This document shows positions 30,847 through 56,184 of a stretch of 64,000 nt of DNA, piece after piece (positions within the stretch are counted from its first letter, which is position 1; every line of letters starts with the position of its first letter). This stretch comes from an uncultured bacterium (GTDB taxonomy: Bacteria; Zhuqueibacterota; QNDG01; DTFT01): positions 128,001 through 192,000 of the forward strand of contig CAVTNR010000014.1 of assembly GCA_963736115.1 (NCBI GenBank), given 5' to 3'. The translations under genes and the position numbers were made by a program. Below the pieces are notes generated by a model. It was not told the DNA's origin and did not search any database. It was given only the letters and a program-made list of their open reading frames with translations.

Positions 30847-30885
30847 AAAACGCTCCGGGAGGTTTCAAACCTCCCGGAGCGTTTT
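30847..30885. terminator. Perfect 19-bp inverted repeat, likely a bidirectional terminator or REP
   Basis: AAAACGCTCCGGGAGGTTT-C-AAACCTCCCGGAGCGTTTT between convergent genes. Confidence 0.8.
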
Positions 30886-30904
30886 GTTTCTCGATCTGCC
30901 TGAA

Positions 30905-31021
30905 TCTGTCAGCGAGCGCATTCCCCAGTCCCGCGATGCGGGATCAATCTGCGGATGATGGCTATTGAAGACTTTGCGGGACCAAGCTATCGGATTATTT
31001 CAATATTGAAGGCCCGCGGCT
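30905..31021 (+). mobile_element. Partial non-autonomous IS200/IS605-like element end carrying two nested short inserts
   Basis: TGAA|TCTGTCAGCGAGCGCATTCCC matches the reverse complement of 56163-56188; host hairpin arm CCCGCGGCT resumes at 31013. Confidence 0.6.
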
Positions 31022-31091
31022 ACAGCGACCAAACCAGGCCGGTTTAAAAACGCGGAACCCGAAACCCGAAATTCGGGAATGACAAAAATAG

Positions 31092-55898: not shown

Positions 55899-56184
55899 TT
55901 GAAGCTCCCCGCGTCGCGGGAAATGCACTCGCTGTCAGATTGAAGCTCCCCGCCGCCCGCTGCGCGGGATCAAGCCATTATATGCCTTCTTGTTGAAGAC
56001 AAGCGGCGGGGAATCTTCTATCTGTAGAGAAGAGACATCTGATATTCGCTCGCTTACCCCGCGGCCCGCTGCGCGGGATCAAGTTATTGTATTTGTGAAT
56101 TATTGAAGACAAGCCGCGGGCCTTCAATGAGAAAGAATCCGGTTGCTTGGTCCGGCGAAGCCGGGAAATGCGCTCGCTGTCAGA
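55899..56184 (-). mobile_element. Head-to-tail pair of non-autonomous IS200/IS605-like (PATE-type) elements with three short inserts
   Basis: Minus strand TGAA|TCTGACAGCGAGCG-hairpin...GATTCCCCGCCGC/GCGGCGGGGAGCTTCAA, then a 41-nt mini copy also ending GAGCTTCAA. Confidence 0.7.

Follow-up and report, generated by a model that had tools for sequence, protein, structure and literature searches.

The 64,000-nt stretch analyzed here (the window; C14:128001-192000 in the genome of an uncultured bacterium, hereafter G000) contains five copies, named A to E, of a short repeat unit that has at least 144 intact copies genome-wide. The units insert precisely into GC-rich hairpins without target duplication, and we are highly confident that they are mobile micro-elements that select hairpins as their targets. 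Empty sites, nesting, and occurrence in at least six target contexts, including two families of repetitive extragenic palindromes (REPs) and a terminator-like palindrome, bear out the proposal of a preliminary description of this DNA that the units are separate micro-elements lodged in the end hairpins of another mobile repeat. G000 comprises 3.34 Mb in 31 contigs, has a GC content of roughly 60%, and is estimated to be 87% complete. It was searched together with 40 relatives (41 genomes of the order in all), among which the sister genomes G001-G003 are of the same genus.

From 5' to 3', a unit consists of an optional T, a 5-bp GC hairpin, the linker A-YCAA, an AT-rich core of 17-20 nt, and the tail TTGAAGR, for a total of 43-46 nt; the base after the tail is usually C. 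All five units were located in the sequence as first described. They and the repeats around them are as follows:

55956-56000, plus strand: unit A, with hairpin CCCGC-TGC-GCGGG, linker ATCAA, a 19-nt core, and tail TTGAAGA(C), lodged in the host repeat, in the loop of its first hairpin.
56065-56110, plus strand: unit B, with flanks as in unit A and a 20-nt core, lodged in the host repeat, in the loop of its second hairpin.
56120-56165, minus strand: unit C, with hairpin CCGGC-TTC-GCCGG, linker ACCAA, a 19-nt core, and tail TTGAAGG(C), at the 5' foot of the host repeat's second hairpin in the minus-strand reading.
30930-30972, plus strand: unit D, of the 17-nt-core subfamily, nested within the hairpin of unit E.
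30925-31013, plus strand: unit E, its hairpin split by unit D and slightly decayed (CCCAG...TTTGCGGG), with linker ACCAA, a 20-nt core, and tail TTGAAGGC.
55940-56184, minus strand: the host repeat, ~115 nt without its three units.
55899-55939, minus strand: a mini host copy of 41 nt, internally deleted, with both ends and one hairpin.
30902-30924, plus strand: a left-end fragment of a host repeat (GAATCTGTCAGCGAGCGCATTCC), with unit E at the foot of its former hairpin.
31015-31023, minus strand: GTAGCCGCG, which begins a classical REP whose family flanks a transposase gene on contig C2; it abuts the tail of unit E.

The starts of units A, B, and C are uncertain by 1 nt (55956/7, 56065/6, and 56120/1), a C being common to unit and target. 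The reported covariation of the hairpin extends across the genome, with one stem pair read as C:G in 114 and as G:C in 22 of the 144 units. In G000 the base preceding the unit hairpin is never A (0/117). Read on the minus strand, many cores of 19 and 20 nt contain TATAAT; inspection found no -35 element at a usable spacing, and no promoter claim is made.

The exact pattern GCGGGAYCAA-N17-20-TTGAAGRC occurs 92 times in G000, and the same pattern read backwards occurs in neither G000 nor any of the 40 relatives, so the unit pattern is far beyond chance. A looser expression matches 160 places. The total of 144 counts units with an intact hairpin, 137 of them found directly and 7 visible only once an inner nested unit is removed; a further couple of dozen copies are decayed. 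Longer, gene-carrying versions that share the unit head were ruled out, the 25 "orphan" heads in G000 being decayed units or chance matches in coding sequence. The pattern search that had been proposed for the related genomes places the exact pattern in 10 of the 41. All four genomes of the genus carry 45-92 copies, two genomes of another family of the order 12-15, a third genome there 3, and three further genomes 1-2; the remaining 31 have none. Chance hits dominate a scan of one genome per species (185,579 species), where the hairpin is present in 26 of the 108 matches listed and one of these 26 is GC-rich and chance-looking.

The host repeat reads, on the minus strand, (T)GAA, the left end TCTGWCAGCG, a first hairpin 18 nt from that end, a second hairpin 8 nt from the right end, and the terminus AGCTTCAA. 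Roughly 54 copies are present in G000. GAA precedes 43 of 44 aligned left ends (the remaining one looks like a misplaced alignment), preceded in turn by T in 34 of 44 as read from the alignment listing, and the orthologous empty site in G003 retains TGAA. Palindrome-associated transposable elements (PATEs) are gene-less derivatives of the IS200/IS605 family; papers PMC3119063 and PMC7290912 concern PATEs. With two subterminal hairpins, a conserved 5' target, and no duplication, the host repeat looks, by its layout, like a gene-less IS200/IS605-type (PATE-like) element; no transposase matching it was identified in our searches. "Transposon-end hairpins" was thus an apt phrase. The mini and full host copies in the window stand head-to-tail in tandem, which suggests repeated use of the same (T)GAA/TCAA-type site.

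Host repeats provide naturally empty sites. Unit-free copies show both hairpins intact (in G000, with one mismatch at most, the first is found empty 32 times and the second 18 times), and they match the hairpins that deletion of A and B had been said to restore. Among 40 near-full-length copies, 18 lack units and 22 carry one to four; filled and empty paralogues differ by exactly the unit, and one site can hold units of different subfamilies. The absence of target duplication was likewise upheld, the junction varying by only 0-1 nt (the shared C). Mean identity to a reference copy is 93.0% for filled and 88.6% for empty host copies, a comparison confounded by host subfamilies; filled copies are not more diverged, and we draw no conclusion on the idea that they are older or dead.

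All 144 units were then removed in silico and the positions of the resulting joints mapped, with 20,000 random positions as controls. A perfect hairpin of at least 5 bp spans 96 of the 144 joints versus 14.9% of random positions, and the joint falls at a 5' arm/loop boundary in 46 of 144 versus 1.85%. The usual cut lies at this boundary, between the last G and the C of the target's 5' arm. By rule-based classification, the targets are loops of host-type hairpins (55 units), the 5' foot of such hairpins (34), hairpins of other units (15), the REP family of the C2 transposase gene (10), that of the C19 transposase gene (4), a long terminator-like palindrome (class 6; 6 units), and others (class 7; 20 units, several of which are plainly host loops with a variant stem, CCCCGGGG). 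The 5' flanks of the units differ by class (..CCG, ..GGY, ..TCC, ..CTC, and ..TTT). A member of class 6 lies in the window as a 39-nt perfect, terminator-like palindrome after the upstream gene (30847-30885). This palindrome is itself dispersed, with many matches of 35-41 nt at 88-100% identity on both strands in three sister genomes.

Subfamilies of units differ in where they are found. Of the 20 units with 17-nt cores, 15 sit in the hairpin of another unit; of the 26 with CCGGC/GCCGG or GCCGC/GCGGC hairpins, 23 sit at hairpin feet (in at least three flanking contexts); and 50 of the 55 loop sites are occupied by CCCGC-type units whose cores are 19 or 20 nt long. Passive spread along with the host repeat could explain part of this pattern. 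Recurrence of the same relative site in different contexts argues that the subfamily specificity is real.

A second line of evidence concerns the two ends of the unit. Linker position Y (GGAYCAA) and tail position R (TTGAAGR) covary: among the 144 units the pair is C:G in 93, T:A in 44, and discordant in 7. This is the strongest coupling within the unit (0.64 bits, versus 0.55 bits for the known stem pair). One identical core occurs with both states, and in the listed rows from other genomes, which leave out G001 and part of G000, Y and R are concordant in 132 of 137. In an integrated unit the two bases are ~30 nt apart and cannot extend any helix. If the 3' end is set in front of the 5' end, they flank the hairpin at a distance of two bases on each side. 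The joined stem G-R-(T)-CCCGC ... GCGGG-A-Y-C then reaches 8 bp without a mismatch in units that have the 5' T; in units that lack it, one A is bulged or mismatched. Predicted DNA folds contain the Y:R pair in 77 of 144 units modeled as circles and in 4 of 144 modeled as linear molecules. Because the covariation needs joined ends, it points to a circular or joined-end intermediate, through which the units probably pass. The base before the hairpin in G000 is T in 12 of 13 class-3 copies and G, with no extra base, in 34 of 50 loop copies.

Our best overall explanation, held with moderate confidence, is that the units are non-autonomous, hairpin-targeting micro-elements whose ends are joined and which are acted upon in trans by an HUH/Y1 enzyme. 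The 3' end of a unit would be joined to its own 5' end, in a circle or a joined-end synapse, and tail G-R and linker Y-C would pair only in this form, lengthening the hairpin. A single-strand-DNA enzyme of the HUH/Y1 type would act as a dimer, one site holding the element's single hairpin and the other a look-alike target hairpin. Binding of both by such a dimer could account for targets that resemble the unit's own hairpin and for insertion of units into one another. A peel-and-paste mechanism with a joined-end or circular intermediate is described for ISDra2 (PMC8612924). A bolder version, which we regard as doubtful, would make the units a new class of micro-transposon, consisting of a hairpin and a short AT-rich loop, that forms a transient circle of ~43 nt and is moved by a shape-recognizing enzyme; that enzyme would be a RAYT (REP-associated tyrosine transposase) in an undescribed mode or a protein not yet linked to transposition. 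If this were true, each locus would be a growing, ordered stack with the newest copy innermost, and the end hairpins of other single-strand transposons would be progressively disabled, the units being parasites of parasites.

Nothing encoded in the window could move the units, in agreement with the earlier remark that it lacks an effector gene. A mover of the HUH/RAYT type is our tentative choice. It ranks first because such enzymes use single-strand hairpin substrates, create no duplication, recognize ends by base pairing, and are present genus-wide. Three genes of G000, all outside the window, score above the NCBIfam cut-off for RAYT, an HUH family:

C2:71370-71915: a RAYT gene flanked by inverted REPs of the GTAGCCGCAG type; the motif GTAGCCGC[AG] has ~74 copies genome-wide.
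C19:57393-57902: a RAYT gene flanked by REPs of the TAGGTCCGAAA type; the motif TAGGTCCGA[AT]A has ~58 copies genome-wide.
C17:75006-75746: a RAYT gene flanked by a palindrome with only two copies.

The C19 RAYT is the leading candidate; it alone has close orthologues throughout the genus (70-77% identity in the four genomes). The proposed HUH mobilization is plausible and unproven: three RAYT genes exist elsewhere in the genome, none of them with unit-like flanks. Y1 genes occur in 39 of the 41 genomes, which makes their presence alone uninformative. At the Y1 loci inspected in G000, G001, G002, G004, G026, and G028, there is no IS200/IS605 TnpA with unit-like ends, and the Y1 genes of relatives were set aside as movers, five inspected loci having other REPs or no flanking repeat. 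Two loci, L132 (G001:C169) and L134 (G002:C212), contain stronger IS200-like Y1 genes amid a third REP family (GGGTAGCCCACGRCT...).

Several observations weigh against the explanation that we favor. The units flank none of the three RAYT genes; the nearest lie 2-4 kb off or are absent within 6 kb. Among the sister genomes, the C17 RAYT is found in none (only in G000) and the C2 RAYT is not found in G003; the relatives of the C19 RAYT in unit-bearing genomes of another family are all distant (at most 36% identity). IS200/IS605 elements show a replication-strand orientation bias, and the units show none relative to local GC skew (70:66, p = 0.8, with 8 weak-skew sites set aside). The units share no 4-5-nt target, and they have a single hairpin each instead of two. 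The 5' T is missing from most copies in host loops (the 34 of 50 with G before the hairpin), leaving their joined stem with a bulged or mismatched A. As to whether targets are always GC hairpins, 96 joints have a perfect hairpin; the other 48 of 144 showed none after unit removal and include imperfect stems and sites beside decayed units. Many copies may have spread passively with the host repeat, which would put the number of independent insertions well below 144. Finally, at 87% completeness, the assembly of G000 could be missing an autonomous partner.

A recombinase outside the HUH group that acts on hairpins (an integron-integrase-like tyrosine recombinase, an IS110-type enzyme, or an unrecognized protein) is an unlikely alternative mover. 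Its appeal is that the joined hairpin would be split at integration, with two bases left at the 3' end and the remainder at the 5' end, that the targets are hairpins, and that the units show no replication-strand bias. Integron attC sites resemble the units in that a folded single-strand hairpin serves as the recombination site and is split between the ends of the integrated element. The units differ in having no R''/R' boxes (no RYYYAAC/GTTRRRY boxes were seen by inspection), cargo gene, or attI, and their donor cut, at the hairpin foot, is not equivalent to the target cut, at the top of the 5' arm, unlike attC x attC recombination. IS110-family elements target REP hairpins without duplication. 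Domain profile searches for this family (DEDD transposase, PF01548) and for TnpB covered G000-G003 and G026, all unit-bearing, and the IS110 domain was present only in G000 and G001 of these five, so we rejected IS110 as the mover. The single IS110-family transposase gene of G000 (C14:87545-88628, a 361-aa frame ~40 kb upstream of the window) lies in an AT-rich stretch that looks foreign in this 60% GC genome, and the ends of that element are unlike those of the unit. IS91 (Y2) was rejected as well: PF04986 matched G026 alone and no member of the genus among its four genomes. The search for a co-occurring protein family thus came out negative for IS110, IS91, TnpB, and reverse transcriptase, none of which tracks the units.

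Spread by an RNA copy and reverse transcription, or by another RNA-templated step, seems improbable to us. Precise insertion without an identifiable transposase would fit, as would the analogy to the very small, hairpin-bearing, nested repeats of Nostoc, for which Elhai reportedly proposed RNA copying and reverse transcription in 2008. Against it, reverse transcriptase (PF00078) was not found in G000 (87% complete) and was rejected as the mover, and the Y:R pair needs joined ends, unlike a linear transcript.

Units also insert into one another, and nested stacks of them are a third line of evidence. In G000 the stacks are two to three deep (e.g., C9:80391-80490), and stacks three and four deep occur in G002:C136 and G003:C182. 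At the end of G002:C116, seven 5' arms are stacked (six CCYGT, ending in T, then one CCCGC), followed by a loop, a 3' arm, a linker, an identical 17-nt core, and a tail, repeating to the end of the contig. The start of G002:C70 is the other side of such an array, and the orthologue of the spacer that holds units A to C in the window lies between these two contig ends; seven arms and at least five bodies are seen, a lower bound on stack depth since the gap between the contigs is unclosed. Tandem duplication can repeat the bodies and cannot stack matching upstream arms; such an array takes successive insertion into the newest hairpin. Only the newest copy keeps an intact hairpin, and repeated hits therefore build nested stacks. 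Because the stacked arms end in T, they fix the borders of the 17-nt-core subfamily, which starts with T and ends with TTGAAGA; its target opens between G and C atop the 5' arm, so the C after the tail is part of the target. Identical head-to-tail tandem units, at hairpin feet and in host loops, were also seen at G003:C182:34000-34320 and G003:C228:16780-17020 (L181 and L182), and these could reflect repeated insertion at one border or slippage.

The same spacer, between a gene for a GWxTD-domain protein and ychF, is found in four states in the four species of the genus:

G003: empty, with the flanks 2 nt apart.
G000: the mini and full host repeats, with three units.
G001: a host repeat in the opposite orientation, ~40 nt away, with three other units.
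G002: the nested unit stack.

The host repeats in the G000 and G001 spacers are independent insertions. It is about as improbable as an RNA-templated route that the units are not mobile themselves and are modules of composite repeats that spread with the host by recombination and tandem duplication. Whole composites do recur: C8:149888-150137 is 94% identical over 251 nt to the composite in the window and has the same core as unit C. Tandem identical units could come from slippage, and most loop insertions share one orientation within the host repeat. Slippage cannot, however, make stacked 5' arms upstream of repeated bodies, and passive modules are hard to reconcile with units in at least six unrelated contexts, with different subfamilies at the same site, and with exact empty sites.

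It had also been suggested that the units are dispersed single-guide cassettes. That they, or a CRISPR-like record, serve an RNA-guided effector is a reading that we dismiss as extremely improbable: despite fixed flanks around a 17- to 20-nt middle, nested stacks that superficially resemble a repeat-spacer array, and motifs such as TTGAT and TTGAA, the cores are homologous, "spacers" are identical within stacks, off-unit matches are at the shuffled level, TnpB was not found, and there is no phage or plasmid match. The 124 distinct cores fall into length classes of 17, 19, and 20 nt, share a common 5' half (GCWAY..GAT / GCTATTATAT), and represent diverged subfamilies of one AT-rich sequence. 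Once the 144 units are removed, the cores match 62 places at no more than two mismatches, nearly all of them decayed units; outside unit contexts there are ~4 such matches versus 5 for shuffled cores, as read from the listing, and at three mismatches 62 versus 19. The TnpB domain (PF07282) had no match in G000-G003 or G026, where no separate IscB search was made, and Rfam returned no match in the window at the gathering score, hence no scaffold RNA. The proposed comparison of the cores with phage and plasmid collections gave no match, and the hairpin was present in none of 57 pattern matches in viral contigs. The preliminary description would have yielded if the cores proved to be diverged copies of one sequence with no empty sites, targets, or expression; diverged copies they are, yet exact empty sites exist.

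The units are a new variant of the REP and small-repeat kind. Like REPs, including those arranged as bacterial interspersed mosaic elements (BIMEs) or, with RAYTs, as REP doublets forming hairpins (REPINs), they are short, non-coding GC hairpins present in many copies, which a single-copy enzyme presumably moves in trans and which are presumably inherited vertically within a genus. G000 itself has three RAYTs and two classical REP families. As a lead only, the joined unit would read GAAG and a GTCCCGC hairpin, compared with GTAG and GTCCG in the C19 REP; GAAG precedes the unit hairpin only in the joined form, and the genome's true REPs have GTAG. Unlike REPs, the units end in TTGAAGR after an AT-rich core, occur singly instead of as inverted doublets, flank no RAYT gene, and insert inside other hairpins and themselves. 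To our knowledge, and in the open-access literature searched, nested insertion is not a described property of REPs.

The units also behave much like the small dispersed repeats SDR1-8 of Nostocaceae, which Elhai et al. (Genome Res 18:1484) reportedly described in 2008 as 21-27 nt long, with a conserved hairpin, nested in other repeats or in themselves, and with no known mover. Units and SDRs are alike in being very small, hairpin-bearing, and nested, a likeness of behavior only. The units come from another phylum, are twice as long, have an end-to-end covarying pair, and target hairpin arm/loop boundaries rather than octamer or heptamer repeats. According to a published passage, SDR5 may use HIP1 as an insertion site and is confined to Nostocaceae (PMC5861425).

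The IS200/IS605 elements ISDra2 and IS608 are described as making no target duplication and having hairpin-dependent ends and a single-strand circular intermediate (PMC8612924, PMC2806898). The units share the absence of duplication and differ in their length of 43-46 nt, single hairpin, lack of a fixed 4- to 5-nt target, and lack of strand bias. The features that mark PATEs, i.e., hairpins at both ends, a fixed target, and a replication-orientation bias, were not found in the unit; a second hairpin (GYCTTC...GAAGRC) occurs only in the 19-nt-core subfamily and is often mismatched. Two motifs in the units had been attributed to ISDra2. TTGAT does appear as its target and transposon-associated motif (TAM), and TTCAA as its right end was not found in the two texts (PMC2806898, PMC8612924). 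Assignment of the units as guide cassettes or as mini-elements of IS110 or IS91 failed in every case. No description of such units was found in the open-access literature (main texts), nor any Rfam match in the window, so these searches did not turn up an already described repeat, the other outcome that could have overturned the preliminary description.

At 43-46 nt, the units rank with the smallest elements for which precise, repeated insertion is clearly documented. Evidence such as theirs is seldom at hand: empty sites that match exactly, nested stacks of identical copies, and one orthologous spacer in four states among four species. How REPs and the small repeats of cyanobacteria move is still an open question, and hairpin targeting, subfamily-specific sites, and the end-to-end pair offer a handle on how hairpin repeats move. 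Element and target fit within one synthetic oligonucleotide, which makes the chemistry directly testable with the three RAYTs of this genome. For genome annotation, nested stacks can pass for CRISPR-like arrays and can break assemblies.

Units also occur beside a larger repeat in three relatives (G028, G026, and G023). This non-coding repeat of 300-400 nt has a unit directly after the hairpin at one or both ends (L147:826-1219, L148:834-1190, L154:971-1330, and L158:866-1160). It contains no open reading frame of 70 aa or more (L147), and Rfam gave no match to it at E values up to 0.1 at six loci in related genomes; it may represent a structured RNA or else a non-autonomous element of larger size. 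Its copies are 76-87% identical within and between genera of the other family.

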